From NCBI GenBank assembly GCA_036516715.1, contig DATDZX010000043.1, positions 1 through 28,119 of the forward strand: 28,119 nucleotides of DNA, given 5' to 3'. The notes under the pieces were generated by a model that was given only the letters and a program-made list of their open reading frames with translations, was not told the DNA's origin and did not search any database. Of the stretch, positions 12,995 through 20,119 are shown piece by piece (position 1 is the stretch's first letter; the number at the start of each line of letters is the position of its first letter). Source of the DNA: Minisyncoccota bacterium. GTDB taxonomy: Bacteria > Patescibacteriota > Minisyncoccia > 2-02-FULL-40-12 > GWA2-44-9. Made by a program: the position numbers and the translations under genes.

Positions 12995-14089
12995 ATGAAA
13001 CTAACAATAACTCAAAAAAATATTTATAAAGCTTTATCCCTAACCGAACGCGTTGTTACCAAAAACGCTTCTTTGCCTATTTTAAATAATGTTTTAATAA
13101 AAACAGAAAATGGGCGGCTTAAGATAGCCGCTACAAACCTAGAAATTGGAATAACCTGTTTTGTTGGGGCGAAAATTGACGAACCAGGAGAAATTACCTT
13201 ACCAGCAAAGATACTAACCGACTTTATTTCCGCCATTACTGATGAAAAAATAATACTTTCTACAAAACAAAGCACAATGTCTATTGTTTCAGATAAATAT
13301 AAAACCCAGATTTTAGGAGTTGATCCAAAAGATTTTCCAATTATTCCAAAGATAAAAACACAACCTTTTTGTAAGATAGAATCTAGCCTTTTAAAGGAAA
13401 TACTTGTTTCCGTCGCTGACTCGGTGGCCGGCTCTGAAACCAGGCCTGAACTTTCAGGGGTTTTTCTTAAATTTAAAAAGGATAAGATAATCTGTGCCTC
13501 GACTGATAGTTTTCGCCTCTCTGAAAGGGTGGGGGCGATAAAAGCATCAGAAGAGAAAAGTGTTATTTTGCCCAAGAACACCGTCTCTGAATTAATTAGA
13601 ATAACCAACGAAGTTGGTGGTTCCATGGAGGTGAGGGTGGGAGAAAATCAAATATCTTTTTCTAGCGATGATTGTGAGGTTATTTCTCGCCTTATCGACG
13701 GGGTTTACCCGGATTATCAAAAAATTATTCCAGAAAAGTCTCTTTCTCAGATTTTGGTTAAAAAAGACGAGTTGGAGAAAAATACAAGGTTAGCTGGAAT
13801 ATTTTCTTCTAGGATTTCAGATGTAAAAATAAGTAGTTCAAAAGACGTCCTGACAATTACTGCCCAAAACTCTGAAAAAGGAGAAGTGGAAGCAAAGATG
13901 CCAATCGTTCTTAAAAACGATCCATTTGAGGTATCCCTTAATTACCACTACCTCCTTGATGGACTTAAACACATCTCTTCAGAGCATGTGATCATTGAGT
14001 TTACTGGAGAGGGAAGCCCGCTAGTCATAAAACCAAGCACCCCAGAAAAATTATTCACCTATATTATTATGCCCCTAAGACAATCATAA
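12995..14089 (+). CDS. dnaN: DNA polymerase III beta sliding clamp
   Basis: LPILNNVLI, ATNLEIGI, TRPELSGV, STDSFRLS, SRLIDGVYPDYQKIIP and the terminal IIMPLR. Confidence 0.99.
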   Translation: MKLTITQKNIYKALSLTERVVTKNASLPILNNVLIKTENGRLKIAATNLEIGITCFVGAKIDEPGEITLPAKILTDFISAITDEKIILSTKQSTMSIVSDKYKTQILGVDPKDFPIIPKIKTQPFCKIESSLLKEILVSVADSVAGSETRPELSGVFLKFKKDKIICASTDSFRLSERVGAIKASEEKSVILPKNTVSELIRITNEVGGSMEVRVGENQISFSSDDCEVISRLIDGVYPDYQKIIPEKSLSQILVKKDELEKNTRLAGIFSSRISDVKISSSKDVLTITAQNSEKGEVEAKMPIVLKNDPFEVSLNYHYLLDGLKHISSEHVIIEFTGEGSPLVIKPSTPEKLFTYIIMPLRQS

Positions 14090-14376
14090 TGTTTAAAGGG
14101 TTATCAAAAATAGTTGCAAAAAAGAAGATTTTATACAAAGGTGCCGAGGCCACTAGCTTGGCGGTAGAGGATTTAGTGTATAGTTTTTTGTCTGAAAAAA
14201 GGAATCTCCAGCCCTTCATTCAAGATATACTTATTGAATATAATTTTAGAAAAAACAGCCTTGCGTTGAAAGCTAAGAAAAAGACTGTGGCCAATGAGCT
14301 TTCCTTTCTCCAGCTACCACTCCAGGGCTTCTTAAAGGCCCAAGGAGTTTCTCTTAAACAAATCCTTATAATGTAG
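14089..14376 (+). CDS. Putative DciA/DUF721-like helicase-loading protein
   Basis: TAATG overlap with dnaN. The C-terminal half (L.LKAKKKTVANEL......L..FL....V..I.I) resembles the DciA KH-like fold pattern. Confidence 0.5.
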   Translation: MFKGLSKIVAKKKILYKGAEATSLAVEDLVYSFLSEKRNLQPFIQDILIEYNFRKNSLALKAKKKTVANELSFLQLPLQGFLKAQGVSLKQILIM

Positions 14377-14379
14377 CCA

Positions 14380-16575
14380 CTAAAAGCTAGGAAGAGGTGA
14401 TTCGGAAGGCGAAGGTGACGGTTGGTTCGGGGGGGTGTAGATGTTGGCTATCGGCCACTCCCAATTTCTAAACTGAGGGTCACCTTCTGGGTTAGAGGGG
14501 AATGGGCCCTGAGGGTTGTCTTTGTCAACATAATAAAGAATAGAATGGTATTCAGTAAAGCCGTCATCTCTGACATGGCTGTAATTCCCGTCCAACATTA
14601 TTTTATTCACCACCACCGGATCGGCTTGGCGGAAAGATTCATTAGGCAAAACAGCCAAGGCTCGGGAAATGAAATAGTTCCACATTGGCCCGGAGGCGCT
14701 GACACCAGCCCCAGCGGCCGTCATTGGGCTATTGTCGTTGTTGCCATTCCAAACACCAACCACAAGATTAGGAGTATAGCCCACAACCCAACCATCTCGA
14801 TTTTCTTGAGTCGTTCCTGTTTTGGCGGCGACATCTCTCCCCGGGATGTATAAAGAGCTGGAATAACCAAATACGCCGGCCCGGGCGGCATTGTCTGAAA
14901 GAATATCATTCATCTGGCGGGCGATTTGTTCATCTAAAACCCTCTCCGATTGGTCTTCTTTCTGCTCAAGCACGGCTCCACCCGAAGACTCAACTCTTTC
15001 GACGATAACCCAAGGGTTTCTAACACCATCATTGGCGAACACACCATAAGCGGAAGCAAGGTCAATTAGCCGAACTTCTGCTCCGCCGAGAACAAGAGAC
15101 AAGCCATAGGTATTCTTAGGATCAACACTCACAATACCCATCTTTCGGGCCAGAGAGACAGTCTCTTGAATACCGGCCAAGTAGAGAGTTTTAACTGAGG
15201 GAATATTGAGAGATTGAGATAAGGCCTGGCGCAAGGTCACTGGACCTCGGAATCTACCGTCGTAGTTTCTAGGATGATAGCAGGCTTGGCCATACCGATC
15301 TCTAAGCTGGTTCCCGTCGGGAGAACATAAAGGGCTGAATTCTGTTTTTAAATCAAAAATAATTGTTGAGTCGGTGTAGCCTTTATTAAGCGCCTGGGCG
15401 TAAGCAAAAGGCTTAAAGGCTGATCCTGGTTGGCGGTTAGCCGTCGCCACGTTATAGTTGCCATCATTGGCTGAGTCAAAATAGTTACGGGAACCAACCA
15501 GGGCCAAAACCTCACCTGTCTTTGGGCTTATCGCCACCAAGGAGCTGTTCTTAGCCTTATACCTCTCGGTGTTTACTTTTGCATATTTAGCCACCGCCTC
15601 CTCGGCGAGATTCTGGAGATTGGCGTCTAAGGTGGTAATAATACGGAAGCCTCCGTTCTCTACCGCATCCCGACCATATTTCCGCTCCAAATATTCTTTA
15701 ACCATAATCACAAAATGAGGAGCTTGGAATTTTTCCTCGCTCTTCTTAAATTCTAGTTTTTGCTGGGAGGCGGCACTGAATTGGTCGTTGGTAATGTAAC
15801 TTAAGTCTTTCATCCGGGAGAGAATAAAGTTTTTGCGGCCCATGAGCTCGTCGACATGGTTGCCGTAAGGGGAGTAATAGCTGGGAGCCTTAGGCAAGGA
15901 AGCTAGAGTGGCAGCCTCGGCGATAGTCAGCTCAGAAGCACCCTTACCAAAATATGTCTTGCTGGCTGCCTCAATACCATAGGCATTTGATCCGTATGGG
16001 ATCTGGTTCAAATACATCCAAAATATTTCATCTTTAGAAAATCTTCTTTCAATCTCTACCGAAAGGACCAATTCTTTGATTTTTCTAGTAAAAGTTTTTT
16101 CATCTCCAACTAAAGCCTTTTTAATTAATTGTTGGGTGATGGTGGAGCCGCCTTGGGCTAGTTCTAGCGACCCTATGTTTTTAAAAAACGCTCTCACAAT
16201 GCCCTTAATCTCAAAACCCCGGTGGCTATAGAAATTAGAGTCTTCAGCCGCTAGGGTAGCCCTTTTTACGCTCTCAGGGATCTGTTCCCAAGGGATGACC
16301 GTCCTCTTTTCTTCTCCGTGGATGTCGTAAAGAAGAATTTGGCCAGTCCGGTCATATATTTTGGTTGATTCTTTTATTTTCCTCAAAGCGATAGATTCGG
16401 GATCGGGGAGCCGGCGTTCAAGATAAATGAAAAGAGAAAGGAATATTATGACCCCAATCACAAAAACCCAAACAAAAAGGAGGACAAGTTTTTGAATTAG
16501 GTTAAGAGCCTTCTTTTTGCTGGTGGGCAGGAGGGAAAGAAAAAAATGCTTAATGTGGCGGAGAGTTTTATCCAT
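14380..16575 (-). CDS. Class A penicillin-binding protein (PBP1A-type transglycosylase/transpeptidase)
   Basis: TG motifs AAEDSNF.SH.G, GGSTITQQLIK, RKIKE, EIFWMYLNQIPYG; TP motifs GSAFK, SLN, KTG. The ATG at 16575 is preferred to the GTG at 16596. Confidence 0.95.
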   Translation of the reverse strand: MDKTLRHIKHFFLSLLPTSKKKALNLIQKLVLLFVWVFVIGVIIFLSLFIYLERRLPDPESIALRKIKESTKIYDRTGQILLYDIHGEEKRTVIPWEQIPESVKRATLAAEDSNFYSHRGFEIKGIVRAFFKNIGSLELAQGGSTITQQLIKKALVGDEKTFTRKIKELVLSVEIERRFSKDEIFWMYLNQIPYGSNAYGIEAASKTYFGKGASELTIAEAATLASLPKAPSYYSPYGNHVDELMGRKNFILSRMKDLSYITNDQFSAASQQKLEFKKSEEKFQAPHFVIMVKEYLERKYGRDAVENGGFRIITTLDANLQNLAEEAVAKYAKVNTERYKAKNSSLVAISPKTGEVLALVGSRNYFDSANDGNYNVATANRQPGSAFKPFAYAQALNKGYTDSTIIFDLKTEFSPLCSPDGNQLRDRYGQACYHPRNYDGRFRGPVTLRQALSQSLNIPSVKTLYLAGIQETVSLARKMGIVSVDPKNTYGLSLVLGGAEVRLIDLASAYGVFANDGVRNPWVIVERVESSGGAVLEQKEDQSERVLDEQIARQMNDILSDNAARAGVFGYSSSLYIPGRDVAAKTGTTQENRDGWVVGYTPNLVVGVWNGNNDNSPMTAAGAGVSASGPMWNYFISRALAVLPNESFRQADPVVVNKIMLDGNYSHVRDDGFTEYHSILYYVDKDNPQGPFPSNPEGDPQFRNWEWPIANIYTPPNQPSPSPSESPLPSF

Positions 16576-16587
16576 ACTATCGATTGA

Positions 16588-16637
16588 TAATGCCACAAAA
16601 ACTTAATATTTACAAGAATAGAATTGCAGTCTATTAT
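16588..16637. promoter_or_regulatory. Overlapping divergent sigma70 promoters for pbp (-) and tyrS (+)
   Basis: Plus strand TTTACA(16609)-17-TATTAT(16632); minus strand TTGTAA-17-CATTAT with TG extension. Confidence 0.5.
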
Positions 16638-16646
16638 GCATTTAGG

Positions 16647-17819
16647 ATGAATATTAAAACAATCTTAGAGAGAGGGGTGGACGAGGTTATTGAGAGGGAC
16701 CACCTTGAGGGTCGCTTAGCGAAGGGAGACAAGCTCCGAGTAAAGCTAGGAATTGATCCCACCGCTAAAGATCTTCACCTTGGCCACACGGTTGTTCTAA
16801 GGAAAATGAGGCAGTTTCAAGATCTTGGCCACCAGGCCGTTTTAATCATTGGCGACTTCACGGCCAAGGTCGGAGATCCCTCTGGTAAAAACGAGTCTCG
16901 GCCCCAGCTTACCGACGAGCAAATTAAGGATAACCTAAAAGAATATTTGGATCAGGCTAGTAAGGTAATTGATATTAAAAAAACCGAGGTTAGATATAAT
17001 TCAGAATGGTTGGCCCCAGGAGGAACGCCGTTCTTGTTAGAGCTGACAAGCAAATTTACGGTCGCTCGTTCTTTGGAGCGCGATGATTTCCAGAAGCGGT
17101 TAAAAGACAATAGAGACATAAGCGTCCTGGAAATTCTTTACCCTCTTCTCCAGGGTTATGACTCCGTGGCCGTCAAGGCCGACGTTGAGCTGGGTGGAAC
17201 CGATCAAAAATTCAACCTCCTAACCGGAAGAAAAGTCCAAAGGAGATACGGCCAGGCAGAGCAGGACATCATAACCTCACCCTTGATTGAGGGTCTTGAT
17301 GGAGTAAAAAAAATGAGCAAAAGCTTGGGTAACTATATTTCTCTTTCTGATTCGGCTCAGGATATGTTTAATAAAACCATGTCTATACCCGACGCTCTCA
17401 TGGTTAAATATTTCACTCTTCTAACTGATGTCTCAGATACAGAAATAAGCCAGCTTGAAAACGACCAACTTAATCCATCTCTTGCAAGTCAGCCTCAATT
17501 AGAATGGAAAAAAAGATTAGCCAGCGAAATCGTCAGCCTTTATCACGGCCAAAATGCTGCCAAGCAGTCCCAAGCTGAATTCGAAAATGTGTTTAGTAAA
17601 GGAAAGCTGCCAGAAGAAATACCTGAACACAAAGGAGCCGGCCAATCAATTATTGATGTGATGGTCGAGAGTGGCTTGAGCGACTCAAGGACTCAAGCCA
17701 AGCAGTTGATTGATCAAGAGGCGGTAACCAGGAATGGAGAAAAAGTCGAGTGGGGGACCCTCCTTCAGCCAGGAGATGTGGTGAAGGTTGGTCCAAGAAA
17801 GTTTCTAAGGATTATATAG
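16647..17819 (+). CDS. tyrS: Tyrosine--tRNA ligase
   Basis: LGIDPT..LHLGH (HIGH), GGTDQKFN, KMSKS and a C-terminal S4-like domain. Start moved to the ATG at 16647 (MNIKTILERG) because the track's start overlaps the divergent pbp. Confidence 0.97.
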   Translation: MNIKTILERGVDEVIERDHLEGRLAKGDKLRVKLGIDPTAKDLHLGHTVVLRKMRQFQDLGHQAVLIIGDFTAKVGDPSGKNESRPQLTDEQIKDNLKEYLDQASKVIDIKKTEVRYNSEWLAPGGTPFLLELTSKFTVARSLERDDFQKRLKDNRDISVLEILYPLLQGYDSVAVKADVELGGTDQKFNLLTGRKVQRRYGQAEQDIITSPLIEGLDGVKKMSKSLGNYISLSDSAQDMFNKTMSIPDALMVKYFTLLTDVSDTEISQLENDQLNPSLASQPQLEWKKRLASEIVSLYHGQNAAKQSQAEFENVFSKGKLPEEIPEHKGAGQSIIDVMVESGLSDSRTQAKQLIDQEAVTRNGEKVEWGTLLQPGDVVKVGPRKFLRII

Positions 17820-17847
17820 AAAACACCGCCCCTGGGGCGGTGTTTTC
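17819..17847. terminator. Bidirectional intrinsic terminator
   Basis: Perfect 14-bp arms gaaaacaccgcccc-t-ggggcggtgttttc with A/T tracts on both sides, between convergent genes. Confidence 0.85.
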
Positions 17848-17849
17848 AG

Positions 17850-18026
17850 TTATTCAACTTCGTCTTCTTCTTCATCGTCATCATCTTCGTCTCCATCAGC
17901 GTCCTCCTCATCATCATCATCATCCTCATCCTCATCGTCTTTTTCATCCTCCTCCACCAAAATTTCCGTGTCAGCAATATCTTGAGAATCAAGACCCTGA
18001 GCCAAAAATGTTTCTAACTCTTCCAT
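17850..18026 (-). CDS. Hyperacidic 58-aa protein (not in the ORF track)
   Basis: Hand translation: MEELETFLAQGLDSQDIADTEILVEEDEKDDEDEDDDDDEEDADGDEDDDDEEEDEVE; 37/58 residues are D/E, using mixed GAT/GAC/GAA/GAG codons. The stop lies 2 nt before the terminator. Confidence 0.8.
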   Translation of the reverse strand: MEELETFLAQGLDSQDIADTEILVEEDEKDDEDEDDDDDEEDADGDEDDDDEEEDEVE

Positions 18027-18114
18027 GCCATAAATACAACCGCAGCCCCGATCCGTATTTCTGCGAAATCCGGCTCTTTCGCTGTCGGTTTTTGTTATAA
18101 AAATTGTTAAGCTT

Positions 18115-18594
18115 TTATAGCTTGTTGCCCATTATACTGTGTGCACAACAAATTGCAATAGCTAAGGCATCAGCCGCATCATCTGGATGAATTTTATCCT
18201 TAATTCCCAGCAAAAGTTTCACCATTTTCTGAACCTGATCCTTGTCTGCCCGGCCATAGCTTGAGACAGCCTGTTTTACCTGTAAAGGGGTATATTCATA
18301 GACTGGGATCTTAGCCAAACCAAGGGCTAAAAGGATGGAGCCTTTCGTCTCACTGACGGCTAGGGCCGTTTTTTTGTTTTTCATAAAGAATAGTTTTTCG
18401 ATTCCAGCGCAAGTCGGGGCATGAGAGACTATAATTTTTTGGATTTCCTGGTGGACATAAAGCATGTCCAGGGCTTTATCCTTAAACGAGGGCTCAATAA
18501 CCCCATAAGCCAAAGGAGAGAGCTTACTCTTATCATATTGGACGACCCCAAAGCCGACGCGGGTCGTGCCTGGATCAATGCCGAGAATAATCAT
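18115..18594 (-). CDS. ruvC: Holliday junction resolvase RuvC
   Basis: ILGIDPGTTRVGFG, IEKLFF, EYTPLQVKQAV.SYGRADK.QV and DDAADALAIA catalytic motifs. Confidence 0.97.
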   Translation of the reverse strand: MIILGIDPGTTRVGFGVVQYDKSKLSPLAYGVIEPSFKDKALDMLYVHQEIQKIIVSHAPTCAGIEKLFFMKNKKTALAVSETKGSILLALGLAKIPVYEYTPLQVKQAVSSYGRADKDQVQKMVKLLLGIKDKIHPDDAADALAIAICCAHSIMGNKL

Positions 18595-19100
18595 ACTGAT
18601 ACATTTAAGGCCACATCTTCCACGTCATCGTGATTATCAAGGGCCTCCAATAATTTATCTAATTTTGCTTCTGCCCCCTCTGGCACCTTCTCGATGGGTT
18701 GATGGAACATCCAACTGACACTTCCCAGAGAGACCATTTTAGCTTCATGGCTTGAAAGAATGGATTTAATTTCGGATATAGTCCTGTTTTTGTTATCCGT
18801 CACTCCTTTTATCCGCATTGCCACGCCACCTGGACCAAGAGCCTCAACGACAATCTCTTCCAGCTGAGCAGCCCCTTTTTCTGAAACCTTTTTTACAGCC
18901 CGCTCGATATTTTCATTGGGCATGTTCATCGCCCGGGCTTGCTCAATGGCCGAAGCGAGGGAGGGGTTTGCTTTTGGGTCAGCTCCTTTGCGGGCGGCAA
19001 GAGTGATGATTCGGCTTAATTTAGAAAAAACCTGGCCACGTTTTTGATCGGAGGCCGCCTTTTTGTGACGAATTTGAGACCAGCGCGAATGCCCACTCAT
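18591..19100 (-). CDS. yebC: YebC/PmpR-family protein, internally shortened (169 aa)
   Basis: MSGHSRWSQIRHKK, N..LA.AIEQAR..NMP.ENIERA, EA.GPGGVA, DNKNRT, and C-terminal L.ALDNHDDV.DV. Confidence 0.93.
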   Translation of the reverse strand: MSGHSRWSQIRHKKAASDQKRGQVFSKLSRIITLAARKGADPKANPSLASAIEQARAMNMPNENIERAVKKVSEKGAAQLEEIVVEALGPGGVAMRIKGVTDNKNRTISEIKSILSSHEAKMVSLGSVSWMFHQPIEKVPEGAEAKLDKLLEALDNHDDVEDVALNVSV

Positions 19101-19102
19101 AT

Positions 19103-20119
19103 TTAAATATCCAAAGTTTTCTTTGCGGGAAGATTTACGTGCTTATATCCATGCGACGTGAGAACTCTTCCTTTTGAGGTTCTAGCCAAAAACCCAACTC
19201 GGATAAGATACGGCTCATAGACCTCCTCTAAGGTGCTCTCTTCTTCGGAAATAGCGGCGGCAATTGATTTTATCCCTACCGGTCCGCCGTCGAATTTGTC
19301 GGCGATAGTGAAGAGGATTCTCCGATCAACCTCTTCAAGGCCATGCTCATCAATCTCAAGCATGGCCAAACTTTCTTGGGCAATTTTCCGGCTTATACTC
19401 TTGGCGTCTTTCATTTGAGCATAGTCTCTGACTCTTTTAAGGAGGCGGTTAGCCACTCGAGGCGTGAATCTTGAGGCATTAGCGATTGATTCTAGGGCCC
19501 CTTCCTCGATTGAGACCCTTAGCAATTTAGCGGACCGCTTTACAATCTCCCTGATTTCTTCTGGAGTGTAGAAATCAAGCCGGAAATTGACCCCAAAGCG
19601 GGATCGGAAAGGGGAGGAAAGCATGGAGATCTTGGTGGTGGCAGCAATCAAAGTAAATCTTGGTAGATCAATCTGGAGCATTTTGGCTGCCGTACCCTTG
19701 CCAATAACGATGTCCAGCTTATAGTTCTCCATTGCCGGATAAATAACTTCCTCCACATTTTTATTCAGCCGGTGAACTTCATCAACGAATAAAACGTCGC
19801 CATCGCTAAGCCCAGTAAGAATGGAGCCGACATCACCGGCTTTCTCTAGAGCGGTCCCGGAAGTGACCCTAAGATTTGCCCCTAATTCGTGGGCGATAAG
19901 GTGGGCGAGAGTGGTCTTGCCTAACCCCGAAGGACCGTGAAGGAGAATGTGCTCAATGGGCTCATTTCTCTTTTTAGCTGCCCCGATGATGACCTCAAGG
20001 TTTTGTCTTATCTTTGATTGACCGACGTACTCTTTAAAGTTCCTGGGCCGCAAGGCCTGATCAAGGACTTGATCATCTAAACCTTCAGAAGGCGAGGTAA
20101 TTTGAGGCTTGACATCCAT
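19103..20119 (-). CDS. ruvB: Holliday junction branch-migration ATPase RuvB
   Basis: LRP..F.EY.GQ, Walker A GPSGLGKTT, LFVDEVHRL, FTLIAATT, EEVYEPYL...G...RT.KGR. Confidence 0.98.
   Translation of the reverse strand: MDVKPQITSPSEGLDDQVLDQALRPRNFKEYVGQSKIRQNLEVIIGAAKKRNEPIEHILLHGPSGLGKTTLAHLIAHELGANLRVTSGTALEKAGDVGSILTGLSDGDVLFVDEVHRLNKNVEEVIYPAMENYKLDIVIGKGTAAKMLQIDLPRFTLIAATTKISMLSSPFRSRFGVNFRLDFYTPEEIREIVKRSAKLLRVSIEEGALESIANASRFTPRVANRLLKRVRDYAQMKDAKSISRKIAQESLAMLEIDEHGLEEVDRRILFTIADKFDGGPVGIKSIAAAISEEESTLEEVYEPYLIRVGFLARTSKGRVLTSHGYKHVNLPAKKTLDI

Follow-up and report, generated by a model that had tools for sequence, protein, structure and literature searches.

A hyper-acidic, predicted disordered microprotein encoded behind ruvC across the class Paceibacteria

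Between ruvC and a convergent tyrS, a small Patescibacteria genome carries a frame of 58 codons that specifies mostly aspartate and glutamate, and the locus raises the question of whether this frame is a gene and, if so, what its product might do. The source genome (0.52 Mb in 60 contigs, 72% complete) is of the Parcubacteria/Paceibacteria type, and the stretch of DNA analyzed here, called the window, is 28,119 nucleotides long (contig DATDZX010000043.1 of assembly GCA_036516715.1). An initial annotation, made from the letters of the window, had drawn attention to the frame as unannotated and as a candidate for an undescribed component. The frame and its parts are located as follows.

17850 to 18026, minus strand: coding sequence of the hyper-acidic microprotein, 58 amino acids plus TAA (ATG at 18026-18024, TAA at 17852-17850), from translation and composition
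17853 to 17954, minus strand: poly-Asp/Glu tract, residues 25 to 58, 30 of 34 acidic, with Val at position -2
17991 to 18026, minus strand: N-terminal hydrophobic/amphipathic head, residues 1 to 12, with a predicted helix at residues 2 to 10 (AlphaFold2)

Translation confirmed the reported count of 37 acidic residues and a single basic one (20 Asp, 17 Glu, and 1 Lys, with neither Arg nor His), as well as the 34-residue tail that had been described as almost wholly acidic. All four Asp and Glu codons are mixed, as had also been stated (GAT, 14; GAA, 10; GAG, 7; GAC, 6), and the tract is thus no pure triplet repeat. The head contains the motif ETFLAQGL. When all 519,558 bp of the genome were scanned in six frames, the densest acidic segment, with 23 D/E per 25 residues, lay in this open reading frame (ORF); the next most acidic segment has 14 D/E per 25 residues and lies within a 636-aa protein. 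The tract is therefore the sole hyper-acidic stretch across the six frames of the 0.52-Mb genome.

Identification of the neighboring genes by Pfam supported the earlier placement of the ORF at the end of a ruvB-yebC-ruvC run. The surrounding features are listed below.

19103 to 20119, minus strand: ruvB, with RuvB_N, AAA_lid_4, and RuvB_C domains
18591 to 19100, minus strand: yebC, a short form of 169 aa, with PF20772 and a partial PF01709 match
18115 to 18594, minus strand: ruvC, the constant upstream neighbor (PF02075, E value of 1e-43), present in every relative
18131 to 18158, minus strand: promoter-like element TTGCAA-16-TATAAT in the last codons of ruvC, 10 of 12 matches
18027 to 18114, minus strand: 88-nt spacer or leader with a long imperfect hairpin (MFE of -23.4 kcal/mol, z of -2.87)
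17819 to 17847, both strands: bidirectional intrinsic terminator hairpin common to the acidic ORF and tyrS, with a 13-bp perfect stem
16584 to 17819, plus strand: tyrS, the convergent downstream neighbor, with tRNA-synt_1b and S4 domains

The terminator (-23.1 and -23.4 kcal/mol, with z of -6.5 and -6.8, on the two strands) begins 2 nt past the stop of the acidic ORF and overlaps the final base of the tyrS stop. The initial annotation had credited the ORF with a terminator of its own and with filling its gap exactly. The former statement holds but does not go far enough, as the hairpin is not private and also ends the convergent tyrS; the latter holds only in part, as the 88-nt spacer precedes the ATG. 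In most relatives tyrS likewise lies convergent on the 3' side of the acidic ORF, and nearly all of them have a comparable hairpin 0 to 22 nt past the stop codon.

Homology search cannot see this family, because only composition is conserved. When the 58-aa sequence was compared with the proteins of 40 relatives, it matched only itself; a word-indexed search of 5.8 billion clusters, which was flooded by acidic words, returned nothing at E values up to 10; and a profile of the 38 members first collected matched none of 1.84 billion representative proteins. Pfam gave no family at E values up to 1 for any of the 38 members, and NCBIfam, PHROGs, and PDB gave no match to the family either, in agreement with the view that the component is undescribed. 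The source protein was also absent from an exact-sequence look-up in 15 billion predicted proteins, as were 9 of the 10 family members tried, which accords with its having been called unannotated, yet the ESM Atlas contains the 58-aa sequence letter for letter (its other matches score 0.84 or less and are uninformative). Gene callers mostly skip the acidic ORF, and a RuvC-linked acidic protein was not found in literature searches.

Since sequence search was blind to the family, we sought its members by synteny, as acidic ORFs directly 3' of ruvC. By position, a member is an ORF of 34 to 70 aa on the ruvC strand, starting 3 to 290 nt past the ruvC stop and, in nearly all loci, having a hairpin soon after its own stop; by composition, it has at least 12 D/E in a 25-residue segment, few basic residues, a hydrophobic cluster near the N terminus, and a hydrophobic C-terminal end. 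The source ORF fits on both counts, with a spacer of 88 nt (family median, 104 nt) and a hairpin 2 nt past its stop, and with 23 D/E in 25 residues, one Lys, the ETFLAQGL head, and Val at -2. In the same order, an acidic ORF directly follows ruvC in all 28 assessable genomes, which represent four families with RuvC sequences 43 to 62% identical; these ORFs encode 35 to 70 aa with 30 to 64% D/E, and one further locus stops at a contig edge. Other orders of the class Paceibacteria have the acidic ORF after ruvC in 31 of 67 genomes, and the remaining loci comprise 17 with another cassette in the slot, 3 with an empty slot and that cassette elsewhere, 2 with runs of N exactly there, and about 14 with neither. 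Among 28 genomes of other Patescibacteria classes, no acidic ORF was found after ruvC, and the slot is taken by ruvA (often) or by unrelated genes.

The family set thus consists of 60 loci, the source and 59 further genomes, with RuvC identities of 37 to 62% and the acidic ORF always in the D/E frame. The check that the initial annotation had proposed against its own claim, namely, whether relatives lack a frame-conserved acidic ORF, was therefore run, and the ORF survived it. Besides, all matches of the 38-member profile were ruvC adjacent, although it recovered only 6 members in 81 class genomes, and the gene downstream varies (tyrS, PBP1A, and others) while the acidic ORF stays with ruvC. 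Judged from this synteny, the acidic ORFs are an undescribed family across the class Paceibacteria, defined by position behind ruvC.

Such a frame might nevertheless be no gene at all but a purine-rich, slippage-prone spacer that stays open by chance. The tract is indeed GA rich, a one-base shift of the frame gives an open frame too, the gene callers mostly pass over it, and there is one length variant of 3 nt, namely, a soil metagenome contig whose flanks are identical over about 800 nt and whose acidic tract is 3 nt shorter. Against this stands the codon phase. Counted over the first 38 members, GA dinucleotides number 1107, 36, and 96 in codon phases 0, 1, and 2, and GAN codons end in A in 405, T in 244, G in 230, and C in 228 cases. 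This strict single-phase periodicity with all four third bases, kept across 38 divergent genomes, argues for D/E coding rather than a simple purine repeat. Furthermore, all 60 members start with ATG, the stop lies just ahead of the terminator in nearly all loci, and the tract is unique in its own genome. The exact 3-nt difference of the length variant also counts on the coding side. The nonrepetitive ends (heads and C-terminal motifs) are conserved within subclades, with 31 synonymous versus 19 nonsynonymous codon differences, a count from eight comparisons whose pairs are not fully independent. Since RuvC scans of metagenomes and genomes yielded no relative closer than 57% identity, a classical dN/dS analysis is impossible. 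The phases and the synonymous excess agree with the earlier attribution of the mixed codons to selection at the protein level rather than slippage. Taken from these codon patterns, the 58-codon frame is almost certainly a translated gene; a noncoding purine tract is for practical purposes excluded by the phase data and close to refuted, and we regard a spacer held open by chance as extremely improbable. A look for expression evidence turned up neither transcript nor peptide, and no RNA run was among those listed.

Family members have a median length of 56 aa and consist of 53% D/E and 8% K/R, with Cys and His virtually absent, and the general plan is a hydrophobic head, a polyanion of 30 to 45 residues of poly-D/E, and a hydrophobic C-terminal tip. 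The acidic tail contains 36% E, 26% D, and 7% K, and across the members compared the tract is conserved in composition, not in sequence or length. Among the 60 members, hydrophobic residues account for 47 to 50% at positions 6 to 8 versus 10 to 20% within the tract, and their enrichment spans positions 5 to 10 and the last two residues. The last residue is hydrophobic in 48% of the 60 members (20% of these aromatic) and position -2 is so in 30%, whereas positions -3 to -11 are hydrophobic in only 5 to 12%; the tip has no fixed motif. AlphaFold2, given the family alignment, modeled a helix at residues 2 to 10 and coil elsewhere, at moderate confidence (mean pLDDT, 65.6; pTM, 0.18). The microprotein is thus predicted to be intrinsically disordered outside a short N-terminal helix.

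As to expression, no terminator was found between ruvC and the acidic ORF at the locus, and the ORF lacks a Shine-Dalgarno sequence, as do the other genes in the window, where such starts are the rule. The spacers between ruvC and the ORF in 55 relatives are more structured than shuffled sequences (mean z of -1.46, with 19 of 55 below -2), and those of one family (f1) share a recurrent basal stem in which a CTTGTTT-like segment pairs with a AAAGAAGA-like segment around a variable GC-rich apex. Of the 60 loci, 30 have a promoter-like element (TTGCAA/TTGAC(A/T)-16-TAnAAT) with 10 or more of 12 matches, 40 to 120 nt ahead of the ATG. At the source locus, the 5' end of the transcript is predicted near 18124. 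It sits in the ruvC end or, as TTGAC(A/T)-16-TAnAAT, in the spacer, and its -10 part is retained at fixed spacing even at loci with differing RuvC tail residues. Because this element is conserved within the ruvC end or spacer, the acidic gene is probably transcribable alone as well as with ruvC. The same promoter-like element weakens the operon argument.

If the gene is translated, the act of translation rather than the peptide could be the function, in that a long N-proximal D/E run would destabilize the ribosome in an Mg2+-sensitive manner and so serve as a cis-acting translational device, with the peptide itself being irrelevant. In E. coli, D/E runs close to the N terminus reportedly make elongation abort (PMC9718836). 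It would suit such a device that acidity is the only conserved property of the tract and that the stop codon in relatives lies 0 to 22 nt ahead of the hairpin. However, no further cistron separates the ORF from a strong terminator, and in its own order nothing on the same strand lies downstream to be regulated. The tract is also three to four times longer than such sensors require, and a sensor would have no use for heads and a C-terminal tip that are conserved. We therefore consider a cis-acting device very unlikely. An IRD-type leader peptide (MgtL-like) was considered separately and set aside, with a strong terminator located 2 nt past the stop and the next gene being convergent.

The reading that we favor, with a probability of about 0.5, is that the product is a disordered polyanion acting in trans as a nucleic acid mimic or competitor for a basic DNA- or RNA-binding protein, by analogy with known acidic proteins. 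Composition and predicted disorder make the mimic or polyanion reading the best inference. With carboxylates on two-thirds of its residues, predicted disorder, and conservation limited to composition, the protein could hardly act other than electrostatically, and the conserved hydrophobic ends suggest docking on some partner. The gene would be read from the ruvB-yebC-ruvC transcript and probably also from its own promoter in the 3' end of ruvC, via the 88-nt structured leader, and transcription would end at the strong bidirectional terminator 2 nt past the stop. The hydrophobic ends of the microprotein would then dock on a basic DNA- or RNA-binding protein, and the docked poly-D/E tract would compete with nucleic acid for the basic surface. 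In this account the gene, its conservation, its layout, and its predicted disorder come from the data, whereas the trans mode, the mimicry, and the docking are inferred.

Proteins of this kind are known in several systems. In the delta subunit of RNA polymerase, an acidic region contributes to displacing DNA from the enzyme (PMC7749165). Like delta (RpoE of Firmicutes and Mollicutes), the microprotein has a long, disordered, nearly pure D/E polyanion and belongs to a monoderm-type bacterium, and the polyanion of delta competes with nucleic acid on a basic channel. Delta, however, has about 170 aa with a folded N-terminal HARE-HTH anchor, whereas the microprotein has a helix of about 10 residues and no known RNA polymerase link. 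The HARE-HTH domain (PF05066) is absent, none of 38 members has a Pfam match, and only 24 residues lie outside the acidic tract; the microprotein is thus no member of RpoE.

In eukaryotes, DSS1 shuts down the DNA binding of BRCA2 HD-OB1 (PMC11329725), and it has a role in recombination via masking of DNA-binding surfaces (PMC11329725, PMC7641332). Like the eukaryotic DSS1/Sem1 proteins (about 70 aa), the microprotein is small, acidic, and disordered by prediction, and DSS1 carries interspersed hydrophobic and aromatic anchors. DSS1 differs in being less acidic and in having partners (BRCA2, RPA, and the proteasome lid) without a counterpart here, whereas the link of the microprotein to recombination is positional. 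A Pfam search gave no match to DSS1_SEM1 (PF05160), and membership in that family was rejected.

Prothymosin-alpha is about half D/E, is fully disordered, and binds highly basic nucleic-acid-binding proteins by charge. Npm2 and Nap1 also carry acidic intrinsically disordered regions (PMC10987829). Histone chaperones of the prothymosin-alpha type differ from the microprotein in being eukaryotic, longer, and without hydrophobic end motifs, and they show no homology to it.

Ocr, Ugi, ArdA, T7 Gp5.9, and DinI, from phages and bacteria, are small acidic blockers of DNA-binding proteins, and several of their targets are recombination or repair enzymes. DMP12 is also a small acidic DNA mimic (PMC3643605). 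Mimics of the Ocr, Ugi, ArdA, DinI, and DMP12 type are folded and present their charges in a B-DNA-like manner, whereas disorder is predicted for the microprotein, whose gene belongs to the vertically inherited core of a bacterial class. With AlphaFold2 giving coil after residue 10 and a pTM of 0.18, and with no match in Pfam, NCBIfam, PHROGs, or PDB, it was not assigned to the folded DNA mimics (Ocr, ArdA, Ugi, DinI, and DMP12/19).

Finally, the tail of bacterial SSB (D-[IL]-P-F) combines an acidic stretch with a hydrophobic tip, as the microprotein does, and this arrangement docks onto genome maintenance enzymes. The SSB tail is short and attached to an OB fold, unlike the microprotein, which has neither an OB fold nor a D-[ILV]-P-F tip. 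The idea of a detached SSB tail was ruled out, as in 28 of the 30 relatives read the SSB itself ends in D[LIV]PF, and in the remaining two the open frame has a different end. The kind of protein proposed here, a small acidic disordered competitor, is therefore already known, and what is new is this class-wide, ruvC-linked family, for which such a mechanism is proposed.

Which partner might be bound? The Ruv proteins are prime candidates only because ruvC is the constant neighbor while the gene downstream changes. The initial annotation had suggested a regulator of RuvC, RuvB, or YebC or a chaperone for basic proteins such as ribosomal proteins, and for a Ruv link gene position is the sole evidence. 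As a special case of the polyanion reading with the partner named, the microprotein may be a specific regulator of Holliday junction processing that binds RuvC or RuvA/RuvB and occupies the DNA cleft, keeping the resolvase inactive or handing over to RuvAB. In 60 genomes ruvC is the one constant neighbor with a variable gene downstream, no terminator separates it from the acidic ORF, and in other Patescibacteria classes the slot often belongs to ruvA. Besides, DSS1, the closest functional analogue, is also a recombination factor. Where the ORF follows, the C-terminal tail of RuvC is slightly shorter and carries fewer basic residues (mean K/R of 0.93 versus about 1.9 to 2.1), although phylogeny and the overlap of the promoter with those codons confound this comparison. 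On the other hand, the acidic gene has promoter-like signals of its own, RuvA is encoded elsewhere in 40 of 41 relatives, so the Ruv system is complete, and about half of the other Paceibacteria orders keep ruvC without the ORF. As all the genomes are kin, adjacency to ruvC may simply be inherited gene order. A dedicated Ruv regulator accordingly seems doubtful to us.

Two related proposals were rejected. Replacement of RuvA by the acidic ORF is ruled out by the presence of RuvA elsewhere in those 40 of 41 relatives, and RuvC is not more basic where the ORF is present (pI of 9.25 with the ORF versus 9.11 without, no difference). A complex prediction with a RuvC dimer and the microprotein scored 0.00, which counts neither for nor against binding.

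A further alternative dispenses with a specific partner and regards the microprotein as bulk polyanion, a free or tethered poly-acidic peptide whose function depends on composition only, as in counter-ion or Mg2+ handling, charge balance, ribosome tuning, or envelope tuning. Such a polymer could be supplied by this gene or by an ATP-grasp ligase of the RimK/Rlo type that makes polyglutamate. RimK/RimB and RloABC systems make poly-alpha-glutamate peptides or tails (PMC11957051). Unlike the gene-encoded microprotein, their acidic polymer is made by enzymes, and functional equivalence would be hypothetical. In Paceibacteria without the ORF, the slot carries a 7TM_transglut protein (PF14402), an ATP-grasp fused to a RimB-like peptidase (PF14397/PF08443/PF05618), and further RimK-like ATP-grasps, a cassette whose domains resemble those of Rim and Rlo operons. 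In one genome (G182) it lies between ruvC and the convergent tyrS, exactly in the slot of the acidic ORF.

Among 80 sampled class genomes (besides G000), PF14402 was found in 20, and none of these 20 has the ORF behind ruvC; conversely, the 33 genomes of that sample with the ORF all lack it, as do 41 genomes of the source's own order. In three genomes the cassette is at another site and the ORF is still absent. Among roughly 80 genomes carrying either the ORF or the cassette, none was thus seen with both. The raw two-by-two table of ORF versus PF14402 gives a Fisher P value of 2e-11 with relatedness uncontrolled, the trait being uniform within GTDB families. On the RuvC tree, however, 2 independent changes suffice, and the only 3 independent pairs on supported branches give a sign test P value of 0.5. 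Because the trait is uniform within families and independent changes on the RuvC tree are few, the complementarity of ORF and cassette is suggestive, not demonstrated.

Conservation of the tract in composition only would also suit a bulk polyanion. The conserved hydrophobic ends, however, argue for specific docking, about 14 genomes have neither ORF nor cassette, and the product of the cassette may be something else, its 7TM partner hinting at an envelope role. We therefore regard a bulk role as possible but unlikely, and similarly it is a tentative proposal, which we would not expect to be right, that the poly-D/E microprotein and the RimK/Rlo-type cassette are interchangeable answers to one cellular need. 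Composition-only conservation and the exclusive RimK-like cassette fit the less specific bulk role and the competitor acting in trans equally well.

Patescibacteria genomes hold about 500 to 900 genes. With so few genes per genome, retention of the acidic gene in some 60 of the sampled genomes, spread over dozens of families of one class, makes it unlikely to be dispensable decoration. The family may serve as a clean bacterial example of a conserved disordered polyanion that can be found by synteny only. Should the competitor proposed here cover a surface by which the Ruv machinery, or some other basic protein, binds DNA, bacteria would have their own counterpart of the DSS1- and prothymosin-type regulators. 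If it is instead interchangeable with the cassette, the microprotein would be a ribosomally made equivalent of polyglutamate; two unexplained systems, the acidic gene and RimK-like polyglutamate synthesis, would then be linked, and solving either would explain both.

In E. coli, translation is aborted by long D/E runs placed near the N terminus (bioRxiv 10.1101/2021.02.02.429294), so efficient synthesis of the microprotein is not guaranteed. The family is also a natural test case for minimal ribosomes translating more than 30 consecutive acidic residues.

In relatives belonging to Paceibacteria that lack the acidic ORF (the gene for the 58-aa hyper-acidic microprotein), we found a RimK/Rlo-like cassette directly 3' of ruvC, and among the genomes searched the cassette and the acidic ORF never occurred together. 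The cassette was present at ruvC loci L086, L088, L096-L101, L103, L124, L127, L144, L151, L152, and L192-L201 (e.g., L096:1975-3457 and L192:458-2411). It consists of a gene for a 7TM_transglut protein (PF14402) and one for a fusion of an ATP-grasp with a RimB-like peptidase (PF14397/PF08443/PF05618), often with additional RimK-like ATP-grasps. In one relative (G182), the cassette was exactly bounded by ruvC and convergent tyrS.

At three other ruvC loci, the expected position of the acidic ORF was occupied exactly by undetermined bases, i.e., runs of 100 Ns (L136 and L155) or 10 Ns (L126). The low-complexity acidic tract seems to break assemblies or to be masked, and our counts of acidic-ORF presence are therefore lower bounds. 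Besides, the ORF following ruvC at L158 (genome G161), with only moderate acidity and a CxxC...CxC cluster, may represent either an unrelated small protein or a variant that binds metal.

The features of the window considered below are as follows.

14089-14376 (+), 95-aa ORF overlapping the dnaN stop
14380-16596 (-), PBP1A-type gene
18027-18114 (-), ruvC-ORF spacer with a long hairpin (fold z of -2.87)
18131-18158 (-), promoter-like element, including the -35 hexamer TTGCAA
18591-19100 (-), yebC

In several other orders, the same-strand gene lying 3' of the acidic ORF, past a hairpin, encodes a PBP1A-type transglycosylase/transpeptidase (L125, L126, L145, and L147-L150). Since the same PBP gene in the window is located just past the inverted tyrS, ruvC-acidic ORF-PBP1A looks like the older gene order.

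In the promoter-like element, the -35 hexamer arises from the codons for a conserved Ile-Ala-Ile in RuvC, with the -10 lying in the variable tail of the protein. Accordingly, the last residues of RuvC, where N, I, Y, and T abound, seem to have been molded by a promoter lying within the coding sequence. Folding was analyzed in the spacer of the window and in the ruvC-ORF spacers of loci L003-L033, and the mean folding z of such spacers was -1.46 (55 loci). In family f1, CTTGTTT-like segments pair with AAAGAAGA-like segments, forming a basal stem around a variable GC-rich apex. Nothing in Rfam matched the spacer hairpin. As a 5' stem-loop it could be stabilizing; alternatively, it could serve as a site of processing or as a target for autoregulation.

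As for the remaining observations, the 95-aa ORF, for which DciA has been suggested as an identity, had no Pfam match at E values up to 0.01. No recognizable Shine-Dalgarno sequence was found at any of the 27 gene starts in the window, and translation initiation in this organism seems to be largely Shine-Dalgarno independent. SSB (PF00436) had no match in the whole assembly holding the window; because 38 of the 40 relatives searched possess it, the gene most likely resides in the 28% of the genome that the assembly lacks. Finally, the yebC product is only 169 aa long. YebC measures approximately 150 to 190 aa in most genomes of the same order, against approximately 240 to 320 aa for the majority of the other orders and for the other classes. 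Because the best stretch of its central TACO1/YebC domain covers only profile positions 1 to 55 of 160, a sub-domain seems to have been deleted.
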